Source: a virus. Taken from it: DNA of 64,000 nucleotides. The first letter of the stretch is position 1, and each line of letters begins with the position of its first letter. Position numbers and translations under genes: made by a program. The notes under the pieces are model-generated. The model searched no databases. It worked only from the letters and a program-made list of their open reading frames with translations, and was not told the origin of the DNA. The stretch is from IMG/VR virus record IMGVR_UViG_3300027708_000033, positions 63,238 through 127,237 of that record; one strand, given 5' to 3'. Shown here piece after piece: positions 22,649-43,391 of the stretch.

Positions 22649-22660
22649 GTAATCTCACGA

Positions 22661-22927: not shown

Positions 22928-23221
22928 ATGACTGAAAACGAAATTAAATGCCACGGTTTTGGTGCGCACAATCAGTACGAAATGAACATGAAAAGAAACT
23001 ACAAAAACAACTTTGAAACTTGGTGCGAACATTGCGCGAAGGCGATGGACGAGACCGCAGGTTGGTTAGTTCGCTGGAATTGGAAAACTGATTCTCTAGT
23101 TCCATTCGAAAACGAGCAAGCAGACACCCAAATAAAAAGACTCGGAAACGAATGTGTAAAGAGGTTTCTAAGTTCGAAGGAAGAATACGAGTTCTTCGCG
23201 AAGCGAGCCGGCGAAGTTTAA
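22928..23221 (+). CDS. Small early protein with CxxC motif
   Basis: Start after SD GGAG; WCEHC..LGNEC. Confidence 0.7.
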   Translation: MTENEIKCHGFGAHNQYEMNMKRNYKNNFETWCEHCAKAMDETAGWLVRWNWKTDSLVPFENEQADTQIKRLGNECVKRFLSSKEEYEFFAKRAGEV

Positions 23222-23240
23222 AGTCGACCGCAAAAGGATT

Positions 23241-23269
23241 TCGCCTGCGAAAGCGGGCGATTTCTTTTT
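23241..23269 (+). terminator. Intrinsic terminator
   Basis: TCGCCTGC-GAAA-GCGGGCGA plus T tract. Confidence 0.8.
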
Positions 23270-23288
23270 ATCCGGAAAGAGATTTTTC

Positions 23289-23397
23289 GGTAACAGAACC
23301 GTTATAAATAATTTTAGCGAAATGGTGTATTTGCTTCAGTTTTTGCTGTATAATTGAACTATCAAGAAAACTTGATAAAACGACGAAGGAGATTCAC
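23289..23397 (+). promoter_or_regulatory. Early promoter/leader cassette
   Basis: GGTAAC..GTTATA variant box, TGTATT-17-TATAAT, ATCAAG-aaaa-CTTGAT, AAACGACGAAGGAG. Confidence 0.75.
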
Positions 23398-28781: not shown

Positions 28782-28888
28782 CGTGTGTCCTTTCGTCGTT
28801 TGTGGTTTTTACCACATAATTATTATACAGTGTAATGAAGCAAATGTACACTATTTGTGGAAGATTTTTATAAGATTTCGGTAACATT

Positions 28889-29107
28889 CTAAGTATTCTG
28901 AAGTTCACCGCGAATCAGTAATTCTCCCATTACTCGTATCCGTATCTTGTTCAGTTCTTTAGAGCCGCGTCCAAAGTCCGCCAGTTCAATCGCATCATAG
29001 AGTTCTTTGAGCTGAAGAGTCGTGAATCCTCTGATGTTCCAACCTTGAGAGTTTTCTACATTGAGAACGGTCAACACGAGTTCTCGCGCCTTTAGCTTCG
29101 GTGTCAT
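28889..29107 (-). CDS. Hypothetical protein
   Basis: SD GGAGG. Confidence 0.55.
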   Translation of the reverse strand: MTPKLKARELVLTVLNVENSQGWNIRGFTTLQLKELYDAIELADFGRGSKELNKIRIRVMGELLIRGELQNT

Positions 29108-29169
29108 TGCATTTCCTCCAGAGGTTTGATAGAAAAATACTATCTCGCCTCTGGAGGTTTTGTATGCAA

Positions 29170-29430
29170 CTAGATTAGAGCTGGAACTTTTACCCCAATG
29201 AACTCGCTAGCTAGAAGGTAAGACTTTGTTCCACCTTCTGCTTTCCAGTCGTAGCCGAAGCCTTCTACCTTTGTAATCCAGTCTGGACGGGCGTTTTCCT
29301 GGTGCCAAGTTACGAACCCTTGGAACCTTTCGTAGCCGTAAGCTTCGTAAACTGGTTTTACTTCCGCACCGGTGTGAATGTTTGTGCTGGTAACTACTAC
29401 TGTTGCAATGTCTTTTACTGTTAGGTTCAT
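29170..29430 (-). CDS. Hypothetical protein
   Basis: Start after AAACGACAAAAGGAG. Confidence 0.65.
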   Translation of the reverse strand: MNLTVKDIATVVVTSTNIHTGAEVKPVYEAYGYERFQGFVTWHQENARPDWITKVEGFGYDWKAEGGTKSYLLASEFIGVKVPALI

Positions 29431-29591
29431 GTGAACTCCTTTTGTCGTTTGCCAGATTTTCCTGGTAATACTATTATAGCACATTGCTGAAGCAAAAGTA
29501 CACATTTCCAAAAGATTTATGAAAAAGTTTCTGCGCCGCGTAAAGAAGAATGCCGCCAACTACTTTCGCAGCTGACGGCACTCGACTTTGT

Positions 29592-30248
29592 CTACGGAAG
29601 TGACGGGTCCTGGTCGATAATCCGGTTGTATGTAACCGTGGCATTTCCGTTTTCCTGGGAAACATCCGCAACAGATTGAATGACGGTCAACATACCTTTT
29701 CTGTATGAATGAATCATCATCCCGTTGCCTAAATAGATTCCACTGTGGAACGAGTAATAACTCTTTCGGTAGTGAAACGCTACGATGTCTCCGGGTTCTG
29801 GATTTGCGGTTCGTGTTCCTGTGTGCGATTGCACCGTAGCTGAATGTTTCAGCGTGATACCTAATTGCTGATACGTCCAGTACACAAGCCCAGAACAATC
29901 CCAACCCTGAGGACTAACACCGCTGTAAACATACCAAGTATGATTTGCAGTTTTCCTAAGGGTTTTGATTGTCTTCCGCATGTCCAATGTGTTTTGCACT
30001 CGTTTAGCCTGCGCAACCGCAAGTCTCTCCAGAAGCGTTTGCTTCCTGTGAGCTTCAGCTTCTAAGAAAGTCATCGGCTGGAAAGTTTTTCCCAGTTTGA
30101 TTCCTTCGAAGTGCATTGGCTTTTCGATTGTAGTTGCAACTACCTTAACATTTTTAGGTGTTACGGTATCCGCTCCTGCTGGCGTCTCTGGATAGTTTCC
30201 TCCAAAAACAACTACCGATACGAGCGCTGTTGTTATTAACCATTTCAT
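29592..30248 (-). CDS. Secreted NlpC/P60 peptidoglycan endopeptidase
   Basis: Signal peptide; GWDCSGLV, PGDIV, HSGIYLGNGMMIHS. Confidence 0.9.
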   Translation of the reverse strand: MKWLITTALVSVVVFGGNYPETPAGADTVTPKNVKVVATTIEKPMHFEGIKLGKTFQPMTFLEAEAHRKQTLLERLAVAQAKRVQNTLDMRKTIKTLRKTANHTWYVYSGVSPQGWDCSGLVYWTYQQLGITLKHSATVQSHTGTRTANPEPGDIVAFHYRKSYYSFHSGIYLGNGMMIHSYRKGMLTVIQSVADVSQENGNATVTYNRIIDQDPSLP

Positions 30249-30343
30249 TTAGCAGCCTACCTTTCCTTGCGTTAGTACTTAGCTGTTTATTGTCCGGTCT
30301 CCCTAATCCTGATTATCGACCTCAGGATTAGACTACTTTATCA

Positions 30344-30643
30344 CTAAGCCGCGGTAGAAAGGCTCTTTAGGCCCTTTGCGATTGCTGCCATTAGGTCCGA
30401 AGCCTCTCGCGTGTTGCGAACCGAAACGAACTCACCGGTCTTGATGCTGAAGACTAAATAGTCTTTTGTTTCAGTTGTTCGAAGGACCAATAGGCCGTGA
30501 CGCTTGCGGTAGTACGCTGGAACATAGCCCGCAGGAATTTCGATTCCTGGCGCTAGGCGTGGAACTGTTTCAACTCTGGTGCGATTTTTTACTGGAACCT
30601 TTTTGATTTTAGCCGCAGGTTCAGTGGTTTTGATTTCAGTCAT
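30344..30643 (-). CDS. Hypothetical protein
   Basis: 99 aa, coupled. Confidence 0.6.
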   Translation of the reverse strand: MTEIKTTEPAAKIKKVPVKNRTRVETVPRLAPGIEIPAGYVPAYYRKRHGLLVLRTTETKDYLVFSIKTGEFVSVRNTREASDLMAAIAKGLKSLSTAA

Positions 30644-30866
30644 TTTGACTCCTTGTTGTTTGTTCTTCTTGTTTGATTAATTTGCCGCCCAGTGTGAGCA
30701 GCCAGATGGTGCAGATGATTACGAGCATCACTGCCCAAATCGTTAGGTAAGCTGCCCTACCAATAAAGCCAAGAAAGCCTTCGCGATTTGCTAGTTCGGT
30801 CGCTGCGAACATTCCTTCCTTGGCTTTACGGTAGCCGCGTTCAAAAAGCGACTTGCGCTTAGTCAC
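30636..30866 (-). CDS. Small membrane protein
   Basis: Hydrophobic C-terminal helix; GTG overlap start. Confidence 0.5.
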   Translation of the reverse strand: MTKRKSLFERGYRKAKEGMFAATELANREGFLGFIGRAAYLTIWAVMLVIICTIWLLTLGGKLIKQEEQTTRSQND

Positions 30867-31086
30867 GCTTAGCACTGCGGCGTTCGATATAGCGTTCAAT
30901 GTCTGGACCAAAAGTCCAGCCTAGAACCCATACCGTGCCGATGGTTGGAAGATTTTGTAGAAAGTCTACGAATCGTCCTTCTGCACCGAACGCAATCAGG
31001 ATTATCCAGATAAACAGATAGCCTGCGTAAGAGAGCGGTACAGTGATGATGCTTACAAAGAATCGTCTCAAAGTGTACTTGTCCAT
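30859..31086 (-). CDS. Small membrane protein
   Basis: Two hydrophobic segments; follows promoter cassette. Confidence 0.65.
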   Translation of the reverse strand: MDKYTLRRFFVSIITVPLSYAGYLFIWIILIAFGAEGRFVDFLQNLPTIGTVWVLGWTFGPDIERYIERRSAKRD

Positions 31087-31181
31087 ATTTCCTCTTTTCG
31101 TCGTTACTAGGTTTTCCTAGTAATTCAATTATACTTCATTCTGCTTCAGAAGTACATCGTTTTTTGAAACTTTTTGTAAGT

Positions 31182-31412
31182 TTAGTCGTTCTCGACTTCA
31201 ATTACTTTTCCTGCCGCATCCTCGAGAACGTAGTATTCGGTGTCGATACCGCTGTTCTTCTCGAAGTACTCAGGGAGGTCTTCACCGTTGATGTCGCCTT
31301 CGGTGAGTTCCTTGAAGAGCCGCATGGCTTCTTCATCGGATGAGGCTTCGAATGAAGCCTTCCACGATTCGACCACGTCGAACCTGAAGTTGTAGATTTT
31401 CTTTTCACTCAT
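31182..31412 (-). CDS. Acidic hypothetical protein
   Basis: 76 aa; SD GAGGAG. Confidence 0.65.
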   Translation of the reverse strand: MSEKKIYNFRFDVVESWKASFEASSDEEAMRLFKELTEGDINGEDLPEYFEKNSGIDTEYYVLEDAAGKVIEVEND

Positions 31413-31414
31413 GT

Positions 31415-31723
31415 CTACTCCTCGTCTTCTTCGTAGTCTTCGTTCTCGACTTCTTCGGTGGTTTCAGTGAATACACAAGAAGAGTACTTCTTGTTCAATC
31501 GCTGAACTTCTTCCCACATGTACTCTTCAAGTTCTTCCTGGTCGCTGAAGTAGTGACGCTCTTTCCAGTCGCTGCTTGAGATGACTCCCTTGAAGTTCAT
31601 CGTGAAGTACCAATCGTAGAACTCGTCGATTTGACCTGATGCTTCCAGCTTCCAGTCGCCGAAGTCGATTGTCGCCGTGGTGATTGTGATGTTCTTCATC
31701 TTGTTGTTTTCTTTATCAGTCAT
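31415..31723 (-). CDS. Acidic hypothetical protein
   Basis: Follows promoter cassette. Confidence 0.65.
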   Translation of the reverse strand: MTDKENNKMKNITITTATIDFGDWKLEASGQIDEFYDWYFTMNFKGVISSSDWKERHYFSDQEELEEYMWEEVQRLNKKYSSCVFTETTEEVENEDYEEDEE

Positions 31724-31823
31724 ACTGACTCCTTCATTTTGTCGTTTCTGGATTTCTCCATGGTTCTATTATACAGCGTACTGAAGCAAATGTACACTCA
31801 TTTTGATAACTTTTTGGAAAGAT

Positions 31824-32168
31824 TTAATTTATTTTTGACATTTCCGCATAAGTCTTTAACTGTTGAATCTGCACTTCACTGATTCCCCGCGTGTCTCCAC
31901 TGGAGTCGATGCCTCCCGTAAATACAACTGGACCAACGATGAAGTCTGTACCTCCGCAATACTTCACGAAGATAGATGTTGCAGCCTGATTGAATGGAAG
32001 TTTGGTCATCTTGCCATCTTCATTCGTCCACATGATGAGGTCTGGTGCTAGTCTGATTGGTTCAATGTAACCTCCAACCGCAGTCTGCATGGTTTTTAGT
32101 TGGTTGTCAACGAAAGGTATTACTTGTACCGCACCTTCAGGTGACATGATTGCCGCGAACTGTGACAT
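31824..32168 (-). CDS. DUF3846-like protein
   Basis: LKTMQTAVGGYIE..NEDGK..LPFN..AT..DFIVGPVVFTG. Confidence 0.75.
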   Translation of the reverse strand: MSQFAAIMSPEGAVQVIPFVDNQLKTMQTAVGGYIEPIRLAPDLIMWTNEDGKMTKLPFNQAATSIFVKYCGGTDFIVGPVVFTGGIDSSGDTRGISEVQIQQLKTYAEMSKIN

Positions 32169-32178
32169 GGTTCTCTCC

Positions 32179-32529
32179 TTATTTCTTTTTCTTGTATTTG
32201 TTGCTGATGATTTCAGCAGCTTTTGGACGGTTCTCGTCTGAAGTTTCTTCTATCTCTACCCAGTCGCTGTCGTTCCAGCTAGAGGTTTCGATGATAACTA
32301 ACCCATCTGCCATGCCGTAGTTTCCATCATCAGAGAAGTAATGGACGATTGGTTGTGTGAACACGCGAGCTTCTTCAGTGTGCTCATCGATGGTGATTAG
32401 TTCCGCACCTTCTTCAGGTTCTACGAAGCCAGTTGCGATGAAGATTTCATCGGCACCGTTTTCTGCATCGCTAATGAAAGCCTCTGGACAGATTTCCTGG
32501 ATTTTTGCTAGTAGTTCTTCTTTAGTCAT
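32179..32529 (-). CDS. Acidic hypothetical protein
   Basis: Coupled ORF, SD GAGG. Confidence 0.6.
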   Translation of the reverse strand: MTKEELLAKIQEICPEAFISDAENGADEIFIATGFVEPEEGAELITIDEHTEEARVFTQPIVHYFSDDGNYGMADGLVIIETSSWNDSDWVEIEETSDENRPKAAEIISNKYKKKK

Positions 32530-32755
32530 TTGATACTTCCTCTGCTGTATACTCGCCAATAAACTTGACGACGTCTGTTGACGATAGGTTTTCTGGATAG
32601 TTGGTGAACTTAGACAGGGCGATGCTCCAATCGCCTGCTATGATGCCGCACGCGTGCTCAGCAGTTTCTGCTGACACCTGGTAGCGGTAGGTGATTTTTA
32701 TCGGTGGATTTCCGTTCACCGAGATTTGCCGTGAGACCGCAAACTTTTTGCTCAC
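32522..32755 (-). CDS. Hypothetical protein
   Basis: Coupled ORF. Confidence 0.55.
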   Translation of the reverse strand: MSKKFAVSRQISVNGNPPIKITYRYQVSAETAEHACGIIAGDWSIALSKFTNYPENLSSTDVVKFIGEYTAEEVSND

Positions 32756-33117
32756 TAGTCCCAGCCTTTACAGCCGCAATAAGCGATGTCGAAAGCTCGG
32801 TGAGGTAGAGTTTGTGGGAAGGCCGGGTCTCCGCTTAGTTCCTTGTCGCAAGTTGAGCAAAGGCGCTTGCGCTCAGTTTCTGTTGTGACGCTTAGGTCGA
32901 TGCTAGCCGCAAGCTCGTTGAACCTTTTGAGAGCCTCGTCATACTTTACGTAGGTCATCACACAGATGTCGTTGTACTTGTAGTTTGGAGATTCTGACTG
33001 GATTCTCCATGCTGGTTGACCTTCGCGGATTTCGACTGAGCGAAGCGCTAGCGTCCATGGACCGTAAGGTGCGTTTGCATATGCTGGTGCAGTTAGTTCT
33101 ATTTGTTCTAGACTCAT
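32755..33117 (-). CDS. Hypothetical protein with C-terminal Cys motifs
   Basis: CSTC..YCGCKGWD; follows cassette. Confidence 0.65.
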   Translation of the reverse strand: MSLEQIELTAPAYANAPYGPWTLALRSVEIREGQPAWRIQSESPNYKYNDICVMTYVKYDEALKRFNELAASIDLSVTTETERKRLCSTCDKELSGDPAFPQTLPHRAFDIAYCGCKGWD

Positions 33118-33206
33118 TTGGTCTCCTAGTTGTCGTTTTGTCGTTTACTTCTTGGTTTTATTATACAGCATAATGAAGCAAATGTACACTTCATTTGAAA
33201 CTTTAT

Positions 33207-33392
33207 TTATTTATTTTTTGGAGTGATGCGTTTGATTACCAGCTTGTGCTTTGCTGGATGGACTTCGATGTCGATAACGTAGTCTGTAGCCTGGTTGTCG
33301 ACTGTGAAGCTAGGTTGTGATTTCCGTCCAGCAATAAAGCCTAGCACTAAAGTGGCAATGCCTACCACGAGTATGATTTCTTGATTAGTCAT
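33207..33392 (-). CDS. Small membrane protein
   Basis: N-terminal TM helix. Confidence 0.55.
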   Translation of the reverse strand: MTNQEIILVVGIATLVLGFIAGRKSQPSFTVDNQATDYVIDIEVHPAKHKLVIKRITPKNK

Positions 33393-33790
33393 TATGAAGT
33401 CGCTCTCGCCTTCTCACGGATGAAGTCTGCTATCCTTGCCGCGGTGTCTGCCTGAACTACCAAAGTAGGTCTAGACATTGCTTCGGCGCAAGACTCGTTT
33501 TCACCCTTGCACTTGCATAGGAACGCAAATGGCGTGAACTGCGCAACGATTTCATCGGCTAACTTAGATAGAGGACTTTCCTCTTCTTCGGCCTGCTCGT
33601 CTAGGTCCATGCAGCAAATAAGGCAGAGACCGTGCTCAAGCTCTTCCTCGCTGCAGTCTGTAGTGCCGCACCTTCTGCAAACACCTTCACAGTCGTTACA
33701 CCAAGCGATTTCGCCTGGTTCGTTTTTGCTGAACTCAGCAGCTAGTTTTGTTTCTTCGCATCGCGAACATTGAATCTTGTTTTCGTCCAT
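33392..33790 (-). CDS. Cys-rich zinc-finger protein
   Basis: CSRC..WCNDC..CRRC..CLIC. Confidence 0.6.
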   Translation of the reverse strand: MDENKIQCSRCEETKLAAEFSKNEPGEIAWCNDCEGVCRRCGTTDCSEEELEHGLCLICCMDLDEQAEEEESPLSKLADEIVAQFTPFAFLCKCKGENESCAEAMSRPTLVVQADTAARIADFIREKARATS

Positions 33791-33896
33791 TGCGGTTCCT
33801 TTCGTCATTTAGATTTTCCATCTGTAATCATTATACCACAGATGTGTGATGCTTGCTTCATTTTTTGATAACTTTATGGAAAGATTTCCAGCGAGT

Positions 33897-35666
33897 TTAG
33901 CGGCGGGAAGCCGAGGCCTTTGATAGCACCTTGACTGCCGCCATTCCAATCTTCTGAGCCGCGTCAACCGTGTCCTTGCCAACATGCACAACTTCACCAT
34001 TGCCGTTTACCCAACGGTTTGCTTGCACGACGTCATCGTACGTCAGCCAAAGAACTCCCACGCCGGCTTTGTAGCAACGCTCGACCCACTTGGTGGCGGC
34101 TTGAGTTTCCTCGTGAGTGTAGTGTCCATCGCTTACGACGACAAGCATGCGAGCGCCGTCACCGTGCAAGAAGTTCATCGCACCGTCTAGTGCCTTGAAC
34201 GCCTTGTCGAACTTCTCAGTTCCATCAGGAGCCGTGTAAACCTGAACCTCAGGAAGACTTTGACCTGGCTTCAAAGTCGGGAAGACATCGTTGCCATAGT
34301 AGACCATTGCCGCACGTCCTTGGACGCGCTTGGTGGCCTCAGAGAGAACCCACGCAGTCACAGCCATTGGTTCCATCGCATCGCCCATTGAACCTGAGAT
34401 GTCAACCATTACGCCGACTTTGAGCTGCGGGTTGTCGGTGTGCTTGCGCTGCGTACGACGCCATGGCTCAGTCTGAGTCAGCAAGCCTTTAGACTTGAGT
34501 GCCGCACCTTGAACAAGCGCGCGAGTGCGTAGACGTCCTGGAGGAGTTATCGACTGAATCTCTGTCTGCGAACGCTCGCGGTACTTAGCCTTGTCGAATA
34601 GTTGACCTAGCTTCACGGCTGCCGCACGCTCTTGAGAAGTCGGCTGACGTCTAGACGCTAGTGTCGACTTAGTCTTGCTACCTGCTTCAGCTTCAGCATT
34701 CTCGGTGAAGATTTTCTCCGCGATACCTTTGTGAGCGTGTTCCTCACCTGAATCTGCGCTGCGGCCTTTTGCAATCTTGACCCACTGCTCACTGATTTGC
34801 TGTTCAGCAAGTTCTCCAGCTGCAGCAATCTCTGTGATGCCTGCCGCATCAGCTAGAGCCTCAAGGATTTCCTGAATCTGCTGCTCGATGCTTTCTTGAG
34901 TCTCTTCGCCCTTTTCAGTTTGCGCAGTACGAATGGCTTCAACCCAACGGCGCGCAACGTCATACATCGGAGTGATGTTGTCGTGGTCGTCGTGCATCTG
35001 CATTTCGTTCCATAGACCGCGTAGAGTCTTTAGCAAGTCTGCACCTAGTAGAGTCTCAAGAAGCTGAGGCACGTCACCTAGGTCGCTCTCTTCGAGAACA
35101 CCAGCATCAACACGAGCTAGCGTTAGTCCAGCGAGTCGTGCGCCAGCGTGAATCGTTGAGATTTTGCTTAGTCCTTCTTCGCTTAGGTCGCCAAGCACAA
35201 TTTCAAGTGCACAAGAACGGAGGAACTCACGGTTGTTAGGAGTCGACTGCACACCGAATCCTTCGATGCGTGATTCTTCTAGAAGCTGAAGAGCCTCAAA
35301 CTCTGAACTGCTTAGTGAGCCGTGCGCTGCTTCCATCGACCAGCGAGAGTAGCGTGCGTGGCAAGCTTCGTGGAAGATGGCGCCAGATGCACGAGGCCAT
35401 TCGAATTGAGTGTCGCGTTCGCGAAGGTCGCCAACTACTTCAGCCTCAACGCCTTTTCCGAACGCAGCCTCAGTATTGACTTCGATTTCGCTTAGCGCAG
35501 GGTTGTAAGCTGCAGGTGCTGGTCCACCAGCTCCTGGACCAAGGTATACAACTAGGTCGCCTCGGTATGCCCACTGATTTACAAGCTCGCCAATCTGTGC
35601 GCCTGTCTTCAACCATGCTGGCTGAGTCATCTCTGCTCGTGTGCCATTTGTTTTGAAATGTCCCAT
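33897..35666 (-). CDS. vWA-domain protein with N-terminal HEXXH metallopeptidase-like domain (CobT-like partner)
   Basis: FHEACH..LEESRIE; MIDAS DISGSM..GTE..VVSDG. Confidence 0.85.
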   Translation of the reverse strand: MGHFKTNGTRAEMTQPAWLKTGAQIGELVNQWAYRGDLVVYLGPGAGGPAPAAYNPALSEIEVNTEAAFGKGVEAEVVGDLRERDTQFEWPRASGAIFHEACHARYSRWSMEAAHGSLSSSEFEALQLLEESRIEGFGVQSTPNNREFLRSCALEIVLGDLSEEGLSKISTIHAGARLAGLTLARVDAGVLEESDLGDVPQLLETLLGADLLKTLRGLWNEMQMHDDHDNITPMYDVARRWVEAIRTAQTEKGEETQESIEQQIQEILEALADAAGITEIAAAGELAEQQISEQWVKIAKGRSADSGEEHAHKGIAEKIFTENAEAEAGSKTKSTLASRRQPTSQERAAAVKLGQLFDKAKYRERSQTEIQSITPPGRLRTRALVQGAALKSKGLLTQTEPWRRTQRKHTDNPQLKVGVMVDISGSMGDAMEPMAVTAWVLSEATKRVQGRAAMVYYGNDVFPTLKPGQSLPEVQVYTAPDGTEKFDKAFKALDGAMNFLHGDGARMLVVVSDGHYTHEETQAATKWVERCYKAGVGVLWLTYDDVVQANRWVNGNGEVVHVGKDTVDAAQKIGMAAVKVLSKASASRR

Positions 35667-35756
35667 GTGAATCTCCTTTTTGTCGTTTGTCTCTAATTCC
35701 ATTATACACAGTTTTGAAGTAAAGTACACTTCATTTGTAAAAAACTTTTAAGTTGT

Positions 35757-35862
35757 GAGAGGGAGACCGGAGTGGTCTCAACAGTCTCCCTCTCGTGCAG
35801 GATGCAAACGACGAAGAAAGCATCCTGCCACCGAGACGGAAACGACGAAGAAAGCGTCTCGG
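35757..35862 (-). ncRNA. Candidate 3'UTR-derived sRNA: three hairpins, two with identical anti-leader loops
   Basis: CCGAGACG/CGTCTCGG and GCAGGATGC/GCATCCTGC stems each enclosing TTTCTTCGTCGTTT (minus strand); third 11-bp stem. Confidence 0.6.
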
Positions 35863-35870
35863 AGTTTCTA

Positions 35871-36854
35871 TTAGATTTTAGCTGGACGAATCTCTTCACC
35901 GTAGACTCGAGTGAACGTATCGGCAACAACCGGACGGTCCATCTCTGGAGCCTGAGCTAGAAGGTTCTGAACTGCCCACTTAGTTCCAAAAGTTGTCGCC
36001 AACTCCTTGAACGCAAGCAGCTCACGCATTTGCGGAGCCCATGAGACTTCACCAGTCTGCTGCTTCTTCGCAAGGTTCTGTGCCGCACCAACCATGTTGG
36101 TAGGTACACCAAGTTTCCTAGCTAGGTTCCAGTCAGTGGTCATCTCACTGTGAATCTTGAATCGAGACAACAACGCCTCACTCAAGTTGACTCCTGGAGC
36201 ATTCGGGTTAGTCGCTGCGACCACGAAGAATCCATCCTTCGCCTTGACTGTGCCACGCTCTGGATTTGCAGTTACCGCAAGTTCACGGCGACCATCCATT
36301 AGACCGTACACAACTGTCAAGACCTTCGGGTCGATGATACCAATCTCGTCGATGAGTAGCGGCTTGCCTTCTTCCGCAGCTCTGATGAGAGGTCCATCAA
36401 CCCAGCTGAATCCACCGTCAGTGTTTTGTACGTAGCCACCAACGAAGTCAGAAACTTCAGTGTCGCCTGTACCTAGCACTGTGTAGAGGTCGTTGCCGAA
36501 CGCTGCCTCGAAGACCGCAGTCTTACCAGTTCCTGGAGCTCCGTACAGAAGTACAAACTGTCCTGCGACATGAGCCTTGCGAACAACTTCAACATCGTTG
36601 TGCTCTCCCCACTTTCGTGCAAAGTACATGTCGCCGTTAGGACGAGTGTACTTCGAGAGTCCTTCGAGTGTCTCTGCTTCAACCACAGTTACGAATGCCT
36701 TCTTGCTAGCTGACTTTTTGGTTAGCATGCCAGTCATCGACATGTAAGCCTCTATCGCTTTCGCTGAGTCTTCGTGTTGTGTCTGTACAACTGTCGCGTA
36801 GATGGCTTCGCTTAGACCATCGTACAACTTGTTTAGATTTTCTACTGATTCCAT
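35871..36854 (-). CDS. MoxR/CbbQ/CobS-like AAA+ ATPase
   Basis: GAPGTGKT, WVDGPL, LLIDE, ATNP, LSEALLSRF. Confidence 0.9.
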   Translation of the reverse strand: MESVENLNKLYDGLSEAIYATVVQTQHEDSAKAIEAYMSMTGMLTKKSASKKAFVTVVEAETLEGLSKYTRPNGDMYFARKWGEHNDVEVVRKAHVAGQFVLLYGAPGTGKTAVFEAAFGNDLYTVLGTGDTEVSDFVGGYVQNTDGGFSWVDGPLIRAAEEGKPLLIDEIGIIDPKVLTVVYGLMDGRRELAVTANPERGTVKAKDGFFVVAATNPNAPGVNLSEALLSRFKIHSEMTTDWNLARKLGVPTNMVGAAQNLAKKQQTGEVSWAPQMRELLAFKELATTFGTKWAVQNLLAQAPEMDRPVVADTFTRVYGEEIRPAKI

Positions 36855-36878
36855 AATGTCCTCGTTTCGTCGTTATTC

Positions 36879-37346
36879 TTAGATTAGTGCGTCGGCGAAG
36901 CCGAGCACCTTTCGGGTTCTGGTGACTCGTGCAAGAATCTTGTACGGAGTCTTGTGTGCGCAGATGTCATCCAAGTCATCGACACCAATCTCTACTACGA
37001 TTGGCGCCTTGCGAAGCTTGTAGCCGTGGTCGATTATCTGAGTGAACAGCTTCTCGCCAAAGACTAGTCGCTCTTTTGCCAACTTGATGGCATCTGATTT
37101 GTAGTTGATGATTTCAAAGTTGCCATCAACATCGAGCTTTGGCTTGTCGTACGTTGAGTACGCATTCCAAGTTGCTCGTGGCTTCGATGGAGTCAGTCTG
37201 CGTCTGTACAGTGTCAATGCCACATGTGAACCGCTAGGTGACTTCATGTCTGGTGTTAGTAGCAGCTGCAACACGCTTGCATTGCCTGGCTGCTCAAGCT
37301 CTAAGTAAAGAGCCTTTCCGTAAACCTTGGTCGTCGTATCTTCCAT
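36879..37346 (-). CDS. Hypothetical protein
   Basis: 155 aa; follows cassette. Confidence 0.7.
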   Translation of the reverse strand: MEDTTTKVYGKALYLELEQPGNASVLQLLLTPDMKSPSGSHVALTLYRRRLTPSKPRATWNAYSTYDKPKLDVDGNFEIINYKSDAIKLAKERLVFGEKLFTQIIDHGYKLRKAPIVVEIGVDDLDDICAHKTPYKILARVTRTRKVLGFADALI

Positions 37347-37450
37347 GGTATTTCCCTTCGTCGTTTTGTCTGAGGCTTTTGCCTCATGTAACCATTATAC
37401 CTTGTAACTTTTCAAAAGTACAATTCATTTTGAAACTTTTTGGTGGTGTC

Positions 37451-37492
37451 CTAGACACCTGACTGAGGATTGGAACTCAGTCAGGCGCCTAG
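37451..37492 (-). terminator. Long hairpin after gene 37507-37848
   Basis: 17-bp stem with G:U pairs on the minus strand, loop TTCCAATC. Confidence 0.55.
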
Positions 37493-37506
37493 AAGCTGGA
37501 AGTCCT

Positions 37507-37848
37507 CTAGCCGAGGACCTTGAACCAGTGAGTCGCCTTTTCCCAATAAGACTTCTCGAAGATTTCCATCGAGAGAGACTTTAGGATGTCGCGGTCGATG
37601 CCGGTAGACTTTCCGTTCATGCGCTGGAAAACCTTCTTGCCGTCGACGATGCCGAACTTGGCTTCGCCCATCAGAGCCTCGGCTTCAGCTTTCGCTTCTG
37701 CTTCCATCTCGTCTGCAAGCTTCTTCAGCTCACGAGCGTCTGCCAACTTCTTTGCAACTTCCAAAGCGTTGGTGTTAGTGAGGTCTACAACTTCACTGGT
37801 GGTGGTAATCTCTGTTACCTTGGTTTCTGTCTTGATGATAGTTGCCAT
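37507..37848 (-). CDS. Hypothetical coiled-coil protein
   Basis: Follows cassette. Confidence 0.7.
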   Translation of the reverse strand: MATIIKTETKVTEITTTSEVVDLTNTNALEVAKKLADARELKKLADEMEAEAKAEAEALMGEAKFGIVDGKKVFQRMNGKSTGIDRDILKSLSMEIFEKSYWEKATHWFKVLG

Positions 37849-37998
37849 ACGCAACCACCGTCCTTTCATCTTTTGAAACTTTCGTTTCGTCGTTTATCAA
37901 ACGTTTGCTTGATAGTTCTATTATACCATGTTTTTGGAGCATTTGTTGCATTTTCGCAAACTTTTTTGAAAAAGTTTATAACGAATTGGTAACGACAT

Positions 37999-38241
37999 TT
38001 ATGCCGCGTGTTTGCCCTTTTGCATCATCTTCACTGCTAGCAAGATGAACAAACCGCTCACTAGCATGATGGCACCAATTAGCGCGTAGCCATTTGCTAT
38101 GAATCGAGTCTGGTCCATGTCGTCAGCCATGTAGATTCGTTCGTTGTAAATACCGTTCATGCGCCAGCAAGCTGCCGCAAGAAAGATGTGAGCTGTTGCT
38201 AGGTAGTTCAGCGCGTAGCGCGCGTATCGTTTTGTGCTCAT
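37999..38241 (-). CDS. Small membrane protein
   Basis: Two hydrophobic segments. Confidence 0.55.
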   Translation of the reverse strand: MSTKRYARYALNYLATAHIFLAAACWRMNGIYNERIYMADDMDQTRFIANGYALIGAIMLVSGLFILLAVKMMQKGKHAA

Positions 38242-38555
38242 TAGTTGGTCTCCTCTCGAGACTTCGATATTGGTTTTGTTACTGTTGTGTCAAAGAAAGT
38301 GTTCGCGACTTTCGTGAACTCTTCCGGTGAAGCTTGGAAGAAACCCTCCCAATTTGTTTCGCCGCACTTCACGAGCGCTGCGGCTCGTAGCATCGCGGTC
38401 GAAAGATTTTCGTATGTCTCGGTCCAAACATTAATGATGTAGTCTGTCCAAGTCAAGTCGAACTTGCCGTCTTCTCGCTTGAGTATCGCGAACTCGACTT
38501 CTTGCTTGAAGTCGATTCGCAATACTACATGCTTTTCGTCTATGCGCTCTAACAT
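38241..38555 (-). CDS. Hypothetical protein
   Basis: Coupled ORF; LTWTDYI.N.W.E. Confidence 0.6.
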   Translation of the reverse strand: MLERIDEKHVVLRIDFKQEVEFAILKREDGKFDLTWTDYIINVWTETYENLSTAMLRAAALVKCGETNWEGFFQASPEEFTKVANTFFDTTVTKPISKSREETN

Positions 38556-38558
38556 GGT

Positions 38559-38786
38559 CTATTCGTCTCCTGCGACGATAGCGCCAGAGTCATCGTAGAC
38601 TTTTGCAAGTTCGATGGCATTGTAATCGCATGCTTCATGCGCATACTCACGCAACTTTTCAATCATCACTTCAACGGTGATTTCGTCGAGCGGGATTCCA
38701 ATGTACTCGTTTAGTTCTTCGAGTGTGAGTGTGTACTCTAGTTTTAGAGTTACTGATTCTGGTAACTTGTTTGTGTTATCTGCCAT
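38559..38786 (-). CDS. Acidic hypothetical protein
   Basis: Follows cassette. Confidence 0.6.
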   Translation of the reverse strand: MADNTNKLPESVTLKLEYTLTLEELNEYIGIPLDEITVEVMIEKLREYAHEACDYNAIELAKVYDDSGAIVAGDE

Positions 38787-38910
38787 AAGCAATCACGTCC
38801 TTCATTTCGTCGTTTACAACTTTTGTTGTATTTCCATTATACCTTGTTTTTGGAGCATTTGATACAGTTTCTAGCAAATTCTTTATAACGAATCTATAAC
38901 GACATTTCTG

Positions 38911-39159
38911 CTAATCTAGCTGAGTTGTCGATAGCTCGAGAGCAAACTTTTTGAACTCGTCGCCTTCAAGCGGATTCGCTGCCAAGATGGTGAGTGTGTA
39001 AAGTGTCGCCGCAAGCTCTTTTGGACTTGACTCTTTGATGATGTCTCGCATCAATGCAGAAAGCTGCTGCGCATTTACCAACTCGTCTTCTGTGGAGTTG
39101 GAACGAACTGAGGTGACTAACGCCACTGCAGCTCGTGCTCCTTTACTGAACTTATGCAC
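38911..39159 (-). CDS. Hypothetical protein
   Basis: GTG overlapping upstream stop. Confidence 0.5.
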   Translation of the reverse strand: MHKFSKGARAAVALVTSVRSNSTEDELVNAQQLSALMRDIIKESSPKELAATLYTLTILAANPLEGDEFKKFALELSTTQLD

Positions 39160-39475
39160 AATCGACCTGAATCGCTGTGTGATACAAGAAGCAAGTCGAG
39201 CAAGCAACTCCGTAATCGTTCGGCTTCTTGGTGTTGTTGCGTCGGTTACCGAACATCACTGAGACGTCACCATCTAGTCCTACGAGACTTAGCTTCGTGC
39301 AGATTGAGTAGTAGCTGCGACCAAGCAACTGAGCAATCTCAAGGTTCGAGACGTTCGACTTCTTCAAGTCGCGCATGTCATTGATGTCGTTTACTGACCA
39401 GTATTCTCCTGCTGCGATTGCTGTTAGCAATGTGATGGTCTGGTACTTTTCGTTGTATTCTTGGTTAGTCTTCAT
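39152..39475 (-). CDS. HTH-like protein with C-terminal CxxC
   Basis: WS..D..SNLEIAQLLGRSYYSI; CSTCFLYH. Confidence 0.65.
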   Translation of the reverse strand: MKTNQEYNEKYQTITLLTAIAAGEYWSVNDINDMRDLKKSNVSNLEIAQLLGRSYYSICTKLSLVGLDGDVSVMFGNRRNNTKKPNDYGVACSTCFLYHTAIQVDCA

Positions 39476-39592
39476 AGTGAAGTCCTTTCGTCGTTTTCGC
39501 AACTTGTTGTTTGCTGCTTGATTCCATTATACCTTGTTTTTGAAGCGTTTGTCGCCAATTCGCGAAATTATTTATAACGAATTGGTAACAGC

Positions 39593-39826
39593 TTATTCGT
39601 CTAGAATCTTGGTGATTTTGAATCCAACTTCTTCGAGCGACTCGACTCGCGCTCTGTCGAACTGAGCTTGGTCGTCAAAGTAAAAGTAGACTCGAGCATC
39701 GAAGTCAAAGTCGTCATCGAACTTTGTCTTGCCGTCGCCAATCGCGACAGTGACTTCGTCCACGTTGTCTTTGTAGTTGTAGATGGACACGATGCTGACA
39801 TCGACGTACTTTAGGTTGTCACTCAT
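39593..39826 (-). CDS. Acidic hypothetical protein
   Basis: Coupled ORF. Confidence 0.6.
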   Translation of the reverse strand: MSDNLKYVDVSIVSIYNYKDNVDEVTVAIGDGKTKFDDDFDFDARVYFYFDDQAQFDRARVESLEEVGFKITKILDE

Positions 39827-40073
39827 GTGTTGCTCCTAAAGTTTTCAAGCTAAAGTTTTCAAGCGCCGCGTCAATCTTCGCAATGTCTTCCAGCATCTGC
39901 GCGCGCTGCGCTTCGATGATTGGTAGTAGAGCTTCGCGAGTTCCGCAAGCCGAACAGATTTCAGTCTTGTTGTCCTTGCGTGAGATAGCGCCCATGTACG
40001 CGCCTGGAGTTTCGTTGTTCGGTATGAATCCATCGCATGATGGACAAATTGGTGCTGGTTTGTTTTCACTCAT
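39819..40073 (-). CDS. Small zinc-finger protein
   Basis: CPSC..AISRKDNKTEICSACG.REA. Confidence 0.7.
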   Translation of the reverse strand: MSENKPAPICPSCDGFIPNNETPGAYMGAISRKDNKTEICSACGTREALLPIIEAQRAQMLEDIAKIDAALENFSLKTLGATHE

Positions 40074-40255
40074 TTGCTAGCCTCCTTCAAAGCCTTTGAA
40101 ACTGTGTTGTACATTTCGCCGAACATTTGGTCAACGAACTTTTCGTCGCCTTCCCAATTGTCGGAATCCATCGCTTCGTAAATTGCATCTTGCAAAAGTG
40201 AAAGTTGCTTTTCACTAAGCTCTAGCGTGATTTTGATTTTTGGTTTGTCGCTCAT
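40070..40255 (-). CDS. Hypothetical protein
   Basis: SD GAAGGAG. Confidence 0.55.
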   Translation of the reverse strand: MSDKPKIKITLELSEKQLSLLQDAIYEAMDSDNWEGDEKFVDQMFGEMYNTVSKALKEASK

Positions 40256-40289
40256 GATTTCTCCTTCTCGAGAGTGGGTTGCACTTCGC

Positions 40290-40664
40290 TTACGCGAAGG
40301 CAACCAACTCAGCCTCAAGATTTACGGTTTCGATTTTTGCCCAATAGTCGATTCCAATATCGCCGTTGACGATAACGAATCCACCTGAACATGGACACAT
40401 TGAACATCCTGCATAGCGGTTCCAGCTTATCTTCTCGAACTTGATTCCCTGCTCGATAAGTTTCGCCGCGATGAGTGGTCGCAATGTGTTGTAGTCGCGT
40501 GAGCGACGGTTCGCTAAGTGAGTCCAGACGTCTTCACCGAAGTCAACGAAGACTCGTGATGGCGCGTATGGAGAATCGCTTGCTTGTTGCTTGTATTCGT
40601 ACTTGCGTGGGTACTTGCTTGCTTCTAGTTTTGCAACTACCATTTTTGTGATTGTAGTTTCCAT
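40290..40664 (-). CDS. Hypothetical protein
   Basis: WNRYAGCSMCPCSGGF; follows cassette. Confidence 0.7.
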   Translation of the reverse strand: METTITKMVVAKLEASKYPRKYEYKQQASDSPYAPSRVFVDFGEDVWTHLANRRSRDYNTLRPLIAAKLIEQGIKFEKISWNRYAGCSMCPCSGGFVIVNGDIGIDYWAKIETVNLEAELVAFA

Positions 40665-40831
40665 AAGGAACCTTCTTTCATTTCGTCGTTTGCAGCTTTT
40701 TGCTGTAATTCCATTATACCATGTATTGAAGCAAAATGTAACCATTTTGCAAAATTATTTATAACGAATTGGTAAGAGATTTTTTTGTTTTTGGTGGGCA
40801 TTTTTACGAGTGCCCAGCTCGGTGCTCATCG

Positions 40832-41074
40832 TTAGACGACGAACGCTAGTTTGTAACCCTTGTCGAGCTTTGAGTGAATCTTGTCGAGTGCTTCTGCGAC
40901 TGCCGCGTTCTCGCTTGCGAAGAATTTCGTGCTAGATGCTCGAACTGACTTCTCTGCCATTCCCCATGAGGTGAACAACATGTTGTCCTTTACGACAACT
41001 TCGTAGACCTTCTTCTTGCCAGCATCGCCGCGTGCGCCGTCTGACTCTTTTAGTAAACACCATTTCTTTTCCAT
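40832..41074 (-). CDS. WGR-domain-like protein (paralog 2)
   Basis: W.LLKESDG.RG..GKKKVYE..SWGMAEK..K..KGY; closely similar to 22403-22648. Confidence 0.7.
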   Translation of the reverse strand: MEKKWCLLKESDGARGDAGKKKVYEVVVKDNMLFTSWGMAEKSVRASSTKFFASENAAVAEALDKIHSKLDKGYKLAFVV

Positions 41075-41175
41075 AGCATCCCTGCTTTCGTTTCGTCGTT
41101 TGTATTTATTGTTTGTTGCTAATTCCATTATACCATGTTTTGAAGCAAAAGTGCGCATTTGCGCAAACTTTTTTA

Positions 41176-41478
41176 TTACATTTTGGTAACGAGATTTTGA
41201 CGCTTCCAACCGATGTTCTCGCATCGATACACGCGACCATCGATTTCGATTTCGTCACCAACGCTTAGTGCGGTGTGAGTGCGAAGCGGTGAGAGCTTCG
41301 GCTCGATGATGTTCCACATGAATCCTTCGTAGACGTTAGTGTCACGGAAGATGATGTCTAGAATCACTAGGTCCATGATTCCATTTGGATTTTTGATTTC
41401 GTACGAGAATGAAACGCTTGTGTGTTGGCGTTCACCACGTGGCTCGAAAGCCTTCCAACTGATTTTGATTTCTGACAT
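41176..41478 (-). CDS. Hypothetical protein
   Basis: RTHTALSVGD..CENIGW; follows cassette. Confidence 0.7.
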   Translation of the reverse strand: MSEIKISWKAFEPRGERQHTSVSFSYEIKNPNGIMDLVILDIIFRDTNVYEGFMWNIIEPKLSPLRTHTALSVGDEIEIDGRVYRCENIGWKRQNLVTKM

Positions 41479-41564
41479 ATGATGTCCCTTCGTCGTTTAT
41501 TGTTTGTTGCTAATTCCATTATACACTGCGCCAGTGACATTTGCTGCCATTTGGCGCAAATTCT

Positions 41565-41891
41565 TTATAACGGAATGGTAACAGTATATGCATCTATCCA
41601 CGCAGTAGAAACGTTTTCCCAAGCGCGGTGGTCACGTCCACCAATGTGCCACGCGTAAAGCTCGTCGTCCTTTGGAGCTCCATGCGTGTATCGCTTGTAG
41701 TCGTAGATAGTCGCAACGGTTTTATCTGCAAACTCGATAATCCATCGAGTCGTGATTTTGCCGTCGATGCAATCGGTTGGATGTGGTTCTCCAAATAGCT
41801 CGACTAGCTGCTCGCGTGTCGACTCGAGATATCCTCTGAGCCCAGTGTCATCTGCTTTGCCTGATTCTTGTTTGAGTAATTTAAATTTCAT
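41565..41891 (-). CDS. Phage hypothetical protein
   Basis: LVELFGEP..DGK...W..F..ATIYDYK..WHIGG. Confidence 0.7.
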   Translation of the reverse strand: MKFKLLKQESGKADDTGLRGYLESTREQLVELFGEPHPTDCIDGKITTRWIIEFADKTVATIYDYKRYTHGAPKDDELYAWHIGGRDHRAWENVSTAWIDAYTVTIPL

Positions 41892-41966
41892 GTCGTTCTC
41901 CTTGTTCGTCGTTTTTAATTTTTGTTGCTGATTCCATTATACCATGTGCTTGTGACATTCGTCGCA

Positions 41967-42251
41967 TTATTTAAGAATCCAATGCGGAAGACTTTTGTCG
42001 AAAATTCTGCCAAGCGTTTTCATCGTGAATATGTTCACCATACCGATGACACGATAAGTTCCCAAGCGACCGTGCTTCTCGCTTCCAATTTCAACTAGTT
42101 TGCCAAACGCAAAAGTCGAACTTGGAGTTTGCGTCGTCGTGATAACGCGATAACCTTTTTGGCGCGTGTTATCGACGTAACGCTCGACGATGATGCATGT
42201 GTGCATGTCTCGCGTCCACGATTTAGCGTGAGCCGGAGCACCGGGGTTCAT
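41967..42251 (-). CDS. Hypothetical protein (start uncertain)
   Basis: Fills gap between cassettes. Confidence 0.45.
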   Translation of the reverse strand: MNPGAPAHAKSWTRDMHTCIIVERYVDNTRQKGYRVITTTQTPSSTFAFGKLVEIGSEKHGRLGTYRVIGMVNIFTMKTLGRIFDKSLPHWILK

Positions 42252-42303
42252 GCGAACCCCAGTCTCCTCAATTAGCTCGTAGTCGAAGATGCTCGCGTTC
42301 AAA

Positions 42304-42684
42304 TTAGTCAACCCAACTGTGAACGTAAGCTTTGATGCCAAGTGACTCCAAGTGGTCGACCATCGCTTTTGCAATCGCCTCGTTGTACGCAAGGCTCTGT
42401 CCTCCACTTGCAAAGCCCATGAAACTGTAAGTTCTCAATGAGAGTCCTGGCTTACCATACCAAGGTTCAGCAAGTCCAAGCTTCTTGAAGTCTTGCGCGA
42501 CTTTGGTTCGTGCACTACTGAGCATGACGACAGCATTTCCGCAAATGCCGCCAGACATACTCCATGTTTGAATTCCATCAGTTACTGATACTGGAGTTGG
42601 AGCCTCAGCTTCCATACGTCCTTTGAATGACGCTAGCTTTAGCTCTTCGTAGATTTTTGCTGCTGAGAGAGTTGTAGTTGTCAT
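42304..42684 (-). CDS. Hypothetical protein
   Basis: GGICGNA..QSLAYNEA.A.A..L...GI; follows cassette. Confidence 0.7.
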   Translation of the reverse strand: MTTTTLSAAKIYEELKLASFKGRMEAEAPTPVSVTDGIQTWSMSGGICGNAVVMLSSARTKVAQDFKKLGLAEPWYGKPGLSLRTYSFMGFASGGQSLAYNEAIAKAMVDHLESLGIKAYVHSWVD

Positions 42685-42807
42685 AATGACTCCTTTTCAT
42701 TTCGTCGTTTGCAAGCATTTGTGCTTACAGTTCTATTATACCATCTAGATGTGACATTTATTCTAGTATTGGTAAAAATAGTTATAACGAATTGGTAACG
42801 AGTTTCC

Positions 42808-43083
42808 CTAGTTCGAAACTAGTTCCAAAAACGTGTCAGCACTTATGTGGCCGTTTTCAAAAGCGAGCTTGTATCCTGCCGCGATGACGAGTTCATGAAC
42901 TGGAACTCCAAGACCGTACGCGATGCAGTTGAGAATTTCAGACGAGGCTTCTTTTTGTCCACGCTCGACTTCGCTCAAGTATCCAAGGGCGATGACGCCG
43001 CGTTGCGAAACGTAGCGTAGTGTCTTGTTCTTTTCAAGTCGAGTCTCGCGAATCACGTCGCCTAGTGCTTGTCTATACTGCAT
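42808..43083 (-). CDS. ClgR-like XRE transcriptional regulator
   Basis: ALGDVIR..R....TLR.VS....ALGYLSEVERGQKEASSEIL..I..LGVP, close to actinobacterial ClgR. Confidence 0.85.
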   Translation of the reverse strand: MQYRQALGDVIRETRLEKNKTLRYVSQRGVIALGYLSEVERGQKEASSEILNCIAYGLGVPVHELVIAAGYKLAFENGHISADTFLELVSN

Positions 43084-43120
43084 GTTCTAATCCTATCGCT
43101 TTGTCGTTTGAAAATTGTTA

Positions 43121-43345
43121 TTAGGCTTCTGGGTCTGTAACGGGCATCGCGCACGCTTCACACGTGAACCAAAAGTCGTCGTTCTCGTCAGAGACGATTA
43201 CGTAGTCGAACAGTTCTCCAGAGATTAGGCCAACAGGCTCGTCACACGAAGTACAGGTGTCTTCGTACTGAGCTGCAAGACCTTCGGCCTCTGCGTCTGA
43301 GTGGTCTTCAATGGAACGGACTTGGAAAAGTTCGAAACGATGCAT
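43121..43345 (-). CDS. Acidic zinc-ribbon protein
   Basis: CTSC..CEAC. Confidence 0.55.
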   Translation of the reverse strand: MHRFELFQVRSIEDHSDAEAEGLAAQYEDTCTSCDEPVGLISGELFDYVIVSDENDDFWFTCEACAMPVTDPEA

Positions 43346-43391
43346 GGTAATCTCCTATGGAAACTACCATACATCGCTTCGATTTCCGTGA

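Follow-up and report, generated by a model that had tools for sequence, protein, structure and literature searches.

Twin hairpin loops antisense to a shared early leader mark a candidate regulatory RNA in the tail of a phage ATPase operon

The 64,000-nucleotide stretch analysed here (the window) comes from an uncultured freshwater phage and is the right half of a 127-kb IMG/VR record, IMGVR_UViG_3300027708_000033, estimated to be 76% complete. Just past the stop codon of its MoxR-like AAA ATPase gene, on the minus strand, two perfect hairpins with unrelated stems carry the same loop sequence, and on that strand the loops are the reverse complement of a motif, AAACGACGAA(G), that recurs in the leaders of the early genes. 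We interpret the pair as part of an antisense RNA, embedded in the ATPase operon's 3′ untranslated region (3′UTR), that would pair with the shared leader of several early messages. Judged from the sequence, the case for this reading is evenly balanced, and a pairing function in the broader sense, whether with several messages or with the operon's own message only, is probable.

Two hairpins, one loop and a shared leader

Hairpin 1 (35831-35862, minus strand) combines an 8-bp perfect stem with a 16-nt loop that reads CUUUCUUCGUCGUUUC in the minus-strand RNA and is antisense to the leader, and hairpin 2 (35797-35828, minus strand) combines a 9-bp perfect stem with a 14-nt loop, UUUCUUCGUCGUUU; the loops are predicted to be unpaired with probabilities of 0.90 and 0.93, respectively. 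On the + strand the two elements read CCGAGACG-GAAACGACGAAGAAAG-CGTCTCGG and GCAGGATGC-AAACGACGAAGAAA-GCATCCTGC, in agreement with a first-pass annotation of this DNA, which had described two perfect hairpins with unrelated stems and one 14-nt loop core (AAACGACGAAGAAA on the + strand). That two wholly different stems carry one loop sequence points to selection on the displayed loop. Hairpin 3 (35757-35794, minus strand) is a position-conserved, terminator-like or processing hairpin with a G+C-rich 13-bp stem (one U.G pair) and a 12-nt loop; the 11-bp hairpin with ACUCC in its loop reported earlier is its core (35758-35768/35785-35795), to which the minus-strand RNA adds the U.G pair and one further pair. 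All three hairpins sit between the ATPase stop codon and the promoter of the next gene, with the first beginning 9 nt past the stop, so that the element occupies the position of a 3′UTR-derived small RNA, on the coding strand between a stop codon and a terminal hairpin. The 141-nt minus-strand RNA folds with a predicted energy of -58.1 kcal/mol, compared with -34.0 ± 3.3 kcal/mol for 200 shuffled sequences (z = -7.4; 0/200 as good). The hairpins do not resemble intrinsic terminators: their loops are 12-16 nt long, there are 0 terminator-like sites in 35300-36300, and the closest run of six T lies 13 nt past hairpin 3. Covariance models from Rfam gave no relevant match (cmscan, E<=1 over 20000-45000 and E<=10 over 35700-35900).

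Several observations indicate which strand is transcribed. All genes flanking the hairpins lie on the minus strand, and the + strand has no open reading frames (ORFs) of note in 35300-36300. In L029, one of two related loci with the same element, hairpin 2 closes with a U.G pair and hairpin 3 has a G.U pair in mid-stem when read on the sense strand; on the + strand both become A.C mismatches. Among the loci whose post-ATPase RNA was folded both ways, the sense strand is the more stable in 16 of 22, a weak but consistent preference. Gene orientation, sense-only wobble pairs and sense stability therefore support the earlier assignment of transcription to the gene-sense minus strand, which makes the loops antisense to the leaders and means that the RNA displays UUUCUUCGUCGUUU.

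The candidate partner of the loops is a motif that stands before about twenty early genes in a uniform setting. The sequence AAACGACGAAG, with at most one mismatch, occurs 17 times in the window, compared with 1.6 times in shuffled sequences (maximum 5; 0/100 reach 17), and 15 of these copies are sense leaders while the other two are the hairpin loops. When the core AACGAC(G/A)A was listed across the whole 127-kb record, 21 copies were found before start codons, between window positions 21673 and 43108, with 17 preceding minus-strand genes and four preceding + strand genes. The same listing upholds, for the early region, the earlier claim that the loops are the sole copies opposing local transcription. 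Seventeen early cassettes on the minus strand (28791-43109) are built alike, from a -35-like TGTAC/TGCTTCA, TATAAT, a short 5′ hairpin with a varying stem, AAACGAC(G/A)AA, a Shine-Dalgarno sequence (SD) and ATG, and four divergent cassettes on the + strand (21672-23388) have the same build, two of them holding the 14-nt exact partner of the loop. The cassette hairpin starts ~7 bases past TATAAT and has an A-rich loop, after which come the motif, 10-27 nt before ATG and upstream of the SD, then the SD and the ATG. The motif goes with start sites rather than with promoters, because the copy at 36874 precedes the ATPase start and has no promoter. When leader transcripts were modelled with transcription assumed to begin seven bases past the -10 box, the motif was predicted to be unpaired in 20/20 copies, with a mean probability of 0.90.

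Four leaders can pair with a loop over 14 bp, G.U pairs included, at -18.2 to -18.8 kcal/mol; these belong to the genes starting at 22928(+), 23398(+), 37346 and 41478. The pairing proposed in the first-pass annotation for the leaders at 22908 and 23378 is thus reproduced, with a computed energy of -18.8 kcal/mol, and the leaders of 37346 and 41478 are its equals. Pairing would cover the SD in four messages and, in the others, 10 nt between the 5′ hairpin and the SD. At the internal start of the ATPase gene the loop pairs over only 9 nt (-13.8 kcal/mol). Start regions were also screened at large, with a crude predictor that asks for an SD-like word and an ORF of 50 or 60 codons: 12/170 reach -15 kcal/mol, whereas shuffled loops average 5.2 and reach 12 in 10/300 cases, and at -12 or -10 kcal/mol the duplex counts are the same as for shuffled loops. 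The energy count alone is weak, because any pyrimidine-rich loop finds purine-rich start regions, and the exact-motif statistics therefore carry the case. The earlier figure of more than 20 early mRNAs stands as a count of leaders, with 21 sense core copies before starts, and shrinks as a count of 14-nt pairings to the four described above.

Joint change of loop and start motif across lineages

A search with the ATPase protein brought 31 IMG/VR loci, and the twin hairpins are present in only two of them, L003 (99% protein identity) and L029 (94%). Hairpin 1 is identical in both, and hairpin 2 of L029 differs at two bases, one in the closing pair and one in the loop. The remaining 29 loci (62-73% identity) have a single G+C-rich hairpin at this site followed by the next promoter, as seen in 19/19 non-redundant loci, which identifies the twin hairpins as a clade-specific insertion before an older hairpin. 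Wider scans gave the same picture. In a completed scan of IMG/VR viral contigs, a pattern of two close 11-mers matched 21 stretches and was framed by hairpins only in the L003 and L029 contigs; a looser twin pattern, run over viral and metagenome contigs, gave no new hairpin-framed case among the matches listed; and a 15-mer scan of viral contigs returned 114 stretches with one match each, where the sole member of the clade (L069) is the L029 contig. A protein search found AAA ATPases that are 79-92% identical in other assemblies (P0001-P0009).

The relation between loop and leader recurs in other lineages with different sequences. We collected 665 perfect sense-strand hairpins with loops of 8-22 nt from the phage's own record and the 19 non-redundant loci, and asked for loop 9-mers whose reverse complement occurs in at least four predicted start regions. 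Only 4/665 hairpins have this property, namely the two described here (11 start regions each), one in L004 (6) and one in L025 (5), and the reversed, complemented and same-sense controls each gave 0/665. Other forms of the test did not discriminate: comparison of loop 9-mers with all 9-mers of a locus gave 42 for the reverse complement, 35 for the reverse and 25 for the complement, controls also scored high at K=8 owing to low-complexity words, and an RNAfold-based version lost most known cases. Loops with TTCGTCGTT and leaders with AACGACGA occur only in the three genomes of the clade, and a loop with CCTTCCGTC, which is antisense to GACGGAAGG, occurs only in L004, together with GACGGAAGG leaders. 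L004 has six cassettes with AACGACGGAAGGA and one hairpin, 18 nt past the stop codon of its von Willebrand factor A-like (vWA-like) gene, with the loop AACCUUCCGUCAG. In L025 the start regions read AGAAAGGGG, and the gene stop is followed by two adjacent hairpins with unrelated stems and CCCCCCUUU in both loops, the second of which is a canonical terminator with a T run. The C-rich loops, antisense to AAAGGGG, are found in ten loci of the L025 group, all of which have AAGGGG start regions (3-13 per locus). Across 11 loci of this group, 26/32 sense-strand C5+TT sites lie in hairpin loops, compared with 1/17 on the other strand; control motifs also fall partly in hairpins (12/22, 6/17 and 0/7), owing to other C-rich loops. 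Often the C-rich loops belong to a pair made up of a short hairpin and a terminator; such pairs occupy two syntenic sites, one directly behind the vWA-like gene, and in the second hairpin of this post-vWA pair the loop is kept while 4/18 pairs change on both sides. The first-pass annotation had looked to covariation of loop and leader in related phages; the two do change jointly between lineages, and none is seen within the clade, where the loops barely differ.

A similar arrangement occurs in Cluster K mycobacteriophages. Their start-associated sequences, described in 2011, are a 13-bp asymmetric repeat that precedes 11-19 non-structural genes in a single orientation, and each K1 phage has one copy in the opposite orientation, away from gene starts; by that account their role was unknown and the binder, 'RNA or protein', was left open (PMC3203893). 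Roughly half of them have an inverted repeat in front, later interpreted as a SigA-like promoter containing a dyad (PMC11373665), and the accessible portions of the 2024 Adephagia and 2025 Yasnaya_Polyana papers call the role ill-defined and mention no antisense RNA or hairpin. In phage Anaya we find 16 sense copies and one reverse copy. On the gene-sense strand the reverse copy makes up the 10-nt loop CCUCCUAUCC at the apex of a hairpin that is itself enclosed by a longer stem. This hairpin lies in the gp96-gp97 non-coding gap behind a terminator-like hairpin, and the stretch, which is conserved across 138 phage records, is either left unannotated or labelled a hypothetical protein. Among 11 aligned phages, compensatory changes affect 8/36 predicted pairs, several pairs are G.U on the sense strand, and the apical loop is invariant in nine Anayavirus sequences. 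The locus as a whole (39800-39920 of L389, ~59.80-59.92 kb in Anaya, JF704106) looks like a conserved, RNA-like pair of hairpins, the second of which bears the reverse copy. Strict covariation within Cluster K fails: the loops of Amgine and Ekdilam have drifted, though they are still pyrimidine-rich, while Amgine keeps the consensus motif.

The window shares with Cluster K a private, asymmetric repeat before starts in one orientation, with reverse copies away from gene starts (two in the window), and both here and in Anaya a reverse copy sits in a hairpin loop. They also differ. The Cluster K sequence stands 3-7 nt before the start and contains the SD, whereas the window motif stands farther out and upstream of it; in the window a coding operon carries two antisense copies in its tail, whereas each K1 phage has a single reverse copy; and a search of the window for the 13-bp Cluster K consensus, with up to two mismatches allowed, gave 0 matches.

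Other structured elements were seen among the relatives. At 12795-12915 in L025, and at syntenic sites in L013, L018, L024, L028, L032, L033 and L021, a conserved non-coding stretch of ~120 nt past the vWA-like gene has fixed words, GGTTGAGCGAAAG and CTAGTTCCCAACGGA, around a short hairpin and a terminator whose loops are both C-rich, and it resembles either a gene for a small RNA or a structured operon tail. L005 has a 16-bp terminator-like hairpin (~13017-13056) with an 8-nt loop, UCUGUCCC, antisense to GGGACAGA in three predicted start regions, and is possibly a fourth lineage with the same theme. Two further repeats were considered as the same phenomenon and rejected, as both occur in either orientation. 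In L008 (also L009-L012 and L022), ~11 copies of TTTTTCCATGC / GCATGGAAAAA per 21 kb (for example at 9077-9118, 13600-13650 and 17100-17140 of L008) form inverted repeats with a third half-site within the spacer; these palindromes are probably a protein-binding dyad unrelated to the hairpins. In L031, a 21-kb locus, a two-part repeat of AAAAGGGGT, six bases and TTTTTCCAAGCG is present nine times, with copies on each strand (for example at 6848, 7246, 13601, 18935 and 19122 on the + strand and 5246, 8018 and 16901 on the minus strand), possibly as a promoter of a phage polymerase or a protein site.

Proposed action of the RNA and competing explanations

The observations above were all computed from sequence, and from them we infer the transcription start, 3′ end, stability and effect of the RNA, as well as its accumulation, its pairing in cells, its action on other messages and the sign of that action. 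In the proposed mechanism, the bicistronic operon that encodes a 155-aa protein and the MoxR-like ATPase would be read from a promoter near 37400 into its tail. There, stable stems would hold open two 14-16-nt loops of the same sequence, and the third hairpin would end, protect or stabilise the tail RNA. The loops could then bind the single-stranded leader that separates the 5′ hairpin from the SD in some twenty early messages, both start regions of the operon itself among them. Pairing upstream of the SD could block a standby or enhancer site, or could make a duplex for a double-strand RNase, with cleavage perhaps triggered as early transcripts accumulate. Since pairing covers or abuts the ribosome-binding site, it would most likely lower translation, and since the regulator too would be transcribed early, a delayed brake on early translation would be the simplest logic; activation or protection may occur instead.

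From the earlier proposal of an antisense regulator of the early regulon, the antisense loops and the predicted single-strandedness of both partners stand, while a regulon-wide reach does not follow from 14-nt pairing in four leaders. Several further findings weigh against the antisense reading. The number of start regions reaching -15 kcal/mol is attained by a small share of shuffled loops as well, and most leaders have 10-20 nt between the end of the motif and the SD downstream, so that occlusion of the ribosome is not assured. Hairpin 3 lacks a U tract directly behind it, which makes the 3′ end of the RNA tentative. The element is present in three genomes only, with near-identical loops and no covariation within the clade, and the wider pattern rests on few lineages, with about three independent events and counts inflated by kinship. 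L007 and L015 each have two C-rich hairpin loops and no AAGGGG start regions, and Amgine keeps 14 consensus copies, yet its homologous loop has drifted and pairs poorly.

The loops might instead contact only the two start regions of their own bicistronic message, tuning its translation or stability with no role in a regulon. We regard this as unlikely, although several findings favour it. The exact 11-mer occurs in only two minus-strand leaders, the operon's being one of them, and that leader also ranks among the four best partners (-18.7 kcal/mol); the two loops match in number the two motif-bearing start regions of the operon; and in L004 the loop is matched over 10 nt by the leader of its own gene, compared with 9 nt for the other five. 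Against it, the contact at the internal ATPase start would be the short 9-nt pairing, the leaders of two + strand genes are partners as good as that of the operon, the best match of the L025 loops is the start region of the next gene, and the Anaya hairpin lies in a non-coding gap behind a terminator-like hairpin rather than in the tail of a motif-bearing gene. Similarly improbable is the view that these are plain 3′-end hairpins, serving as a terminator, processing site or exonuclease block, with a loop that is a leftover of an inverted leader or a protein site and pairs with nothing. Their terminator-like position between a stop codon and the next promoter, where all relatives have a hairpin, fits this view, as does the fact that many loops of the C-rich group belong to canonical terminators with a T run; recombination among repeated cassettes could also yield inverted copies, as in the promoter and stem-loop cassettes of phage T4 (PMC2839356, consulted in part). 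A leftover, however, would not twice gain new, perfect and unrelated inverted repeats or stay identical in two copies, nor would it recur in lineage-matched form in three lineages and Cluster K, and loops of 14-16 nt with no U tract behind them are poor for termination.

Two other explanations place the function elsewhere, and even together they have very little probability. If AAACGACGAA were an asymmetric, stoperator-like operator of a phage DNA-binding protein, with the inverted copies as extra sites, its many copies in one orientation relative to transcription would recall the stoperators of Cluster A mycobacteriophages, as outlined in PMC9283540. This is very unlikely, since the motif tracks start codons even at 36874, where there is no promoter, and lies in leader RNA that is transcribed and predicted to be unpaired, and since an operator leaves unexplained both the inverted repeats that frame each inverted copy and the G.U pairs found on the sense strand only. 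The first-pass annotation had offered as its alternative a CsrB-like sponge, a + strand RNA that shows AAACGACGAA in two loops and titrates a leader-binding factor. The + strand also folds well (-54.8 kcal/mol, z = -5.6), and yet this is the least credible of the explanations: neighbouring genes are all on the minus strand, no promoter-like site was found on either strand in 35300-36300, so that a + strand reading needs an unseen promoter, the L029 substitutions leave wobble pairs in the minus-strand RNA where a + strand RNA would have A.C or C.A mismatches, and the T run behind the L025 hairpins is on the gene-sense strand only.

If pairing with the shared leader is real, one short RNA would provide a handle on translation of a whole early gene set; the literature surveyed, in so far as its text was available, describes no comparable handle in lytic phages. 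The antisense reading would also give the start-associated sequences a concrete partner that can be tested. The Cluster K phages are genetically tractable in Mycobacterium smegmatis, which makes the idea testable there though the phage of the window is uncultured. An insertion before an older conserved hairpin, present in three genomes and missing from this site in the other loci compared, shows how such a regulator can arise. More tentatively, and with somewhat less than even confidence in the whole, many tailed phages, especially those of Actinobacteria, may control early or accessory genes through a translational regulon of their own, made of a leader motif and mirror-image hairpin loops, in which case the window would hold such an RNA arising as a clade-specific two-loop insertion and the Cluster K sequences, unexplained since 2011, would be accounted for.

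Known regulatory RNAs, the ATPase operon and other features

In phages P1 and P7, the c4 RNA and its target come from one transcription unit. The loops of c4 pair around a ribosome-binding site and block translation (Citron and Schuster, 1990, as reviewed in PMC12197685). The window loops are likewise complementary to a leader on their own transcription unit, over 14 bp at -18.7 kcal/mol, a likeness that does not amount to membership: c4 has two different loops, one target (ant) and a role in temperate immunity, whereas the window has identical loops, about twenty candidate targets and a lytic-looking early region, and the covariance model of the C4 family is unmatched over 20000-45000. In its working the element is closest to c4 and in its target to the start-associated sequences, and it is a member of neither. 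The earlier statement that no such phage system had been described is accordingly too broad, given that c4 works alike and the leader resembles the Cluster K sequences; it holds in so far as we found no paper, in the openly searchable literature, on an RNA of a phage with complementarity either to a common early leader or to start-associated sequences. That hairpin loops can exert antisense control is known, and what is particular here is the two identical loops, the site in an operon tail and the visible clade-specific origin.

Among host RNAs, GcvB has a linear G/U-rich seed that recognises a shared C/A-rich enhancer upstream of the SD in many targets. The window resembles it in having one seed for a shared leader element before the SD, and differs in using twin hairpin loops and a phage cassette array. 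A pyrimidine-rich motif in the 3′UTR of icaR mRNA of Staphylococcus aureus is complementary to that message's own Shine-Dalgarno region (PMC3868564, consulted in part); this is a cis contact of a single host gene with an anti-SD sequence, whereas the window motif is mostly upstream of the SD and common to many messages. The 6C small RNA (sRNA) of Actinobacteria and other sRNAs with C-rich loops use these loops as chaperone-free seeds for several messages, according to the part of PMC6486639 available. The paired C-rich loops of L025, L033, L024 and L028 resemble them; 6C is marked by two hairpins with six or more C per loop, whereas the window loops have 4-6 scattered C and are not C-rich, the phage elements are encoded in operon tails or terminators, and neither the window nor the L025 C-rich pair gave a match to the 6C family in Rfam. 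Enterobacterial 3′UTR-derived sRNAs such as MicL (10.1101/341578) also place a regulator in the tail of a coding transcript, and terminator loops matter for regulation in these bacteria, with those of fepA likely to act without base pairing (PMC11979758; both sources available in part); these, however, are host RNAs that depend on Hfq and RNase E.

The operon that carries the hairpins begins with a promoter (-10 TATAAT), a 5′ hairpin and the leader AAACGACGAAGGGA (37347-37420, minus strand), which is among the four best loop partners at -18.7 kcal/mol. Its first gene (36879-37346, minus strand) encodes a 155-aa protein without a family match and is followed by the promoterless leader core copy AACGACGA (36867-36874, minus strand; -13.8 kcal/mol with the loop) and the ATPase gene (35871-36854, minus strand), which matches Pfam AAA_5 with 73 bits and a PHROG ATPase and whose 3′UTR bears the hairpins. 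Downstream, a 589-aa vWA-like gene (33897-35666, minus strand) has its own promoter and leader at ~35667-35740; its protein is 57% identical to the L004 homologue, which bears a DISGSM motif, and matches Pfam VWA_CoxE at 21 bits, under the cut-off. No near match to the window was found among deposited phages, where megablast of 34500-37500 was empty. Twenty public runs were found to contain window sequence, all of them metagenomes and mostly freshwater, and 2/20 are RNA libraries with small shares. Contigs from the RNA libraries lie, for example, at coding positions 35497-35669 and 36576-36813 and none covers 35742-35875; being assembled contigs, they are uninformative on absence, strand and level.

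The pairing of a MoxR-like ATPase with a vWA-like gene (33897-36854, minus strand) is very common in uncultured phages, with 2145 proteins at E<=1e-60, and many matches of the ATPase protein are named NorQ or MoxR by their sources. A 75-aa ORF with a TTG start (35702-35929) spans the hairpins and begins within the ATPase gene in another frame. Farther away, at 43332-43382 (minus strand), an 18-bp stem with two G.U pairs and a 15-nt loop holds the SD in its loop and the start codon of the gene at 43345 in its 3′ arm, and is a candidate translational lock. A 3599-aa ORF (5336-16135, minus strand) lies between the portal gene (18146-19834) and further virion genes, and its sole family match is a stretch of DEDD-type exonuclease at residues 535-775 (PHROG 192).

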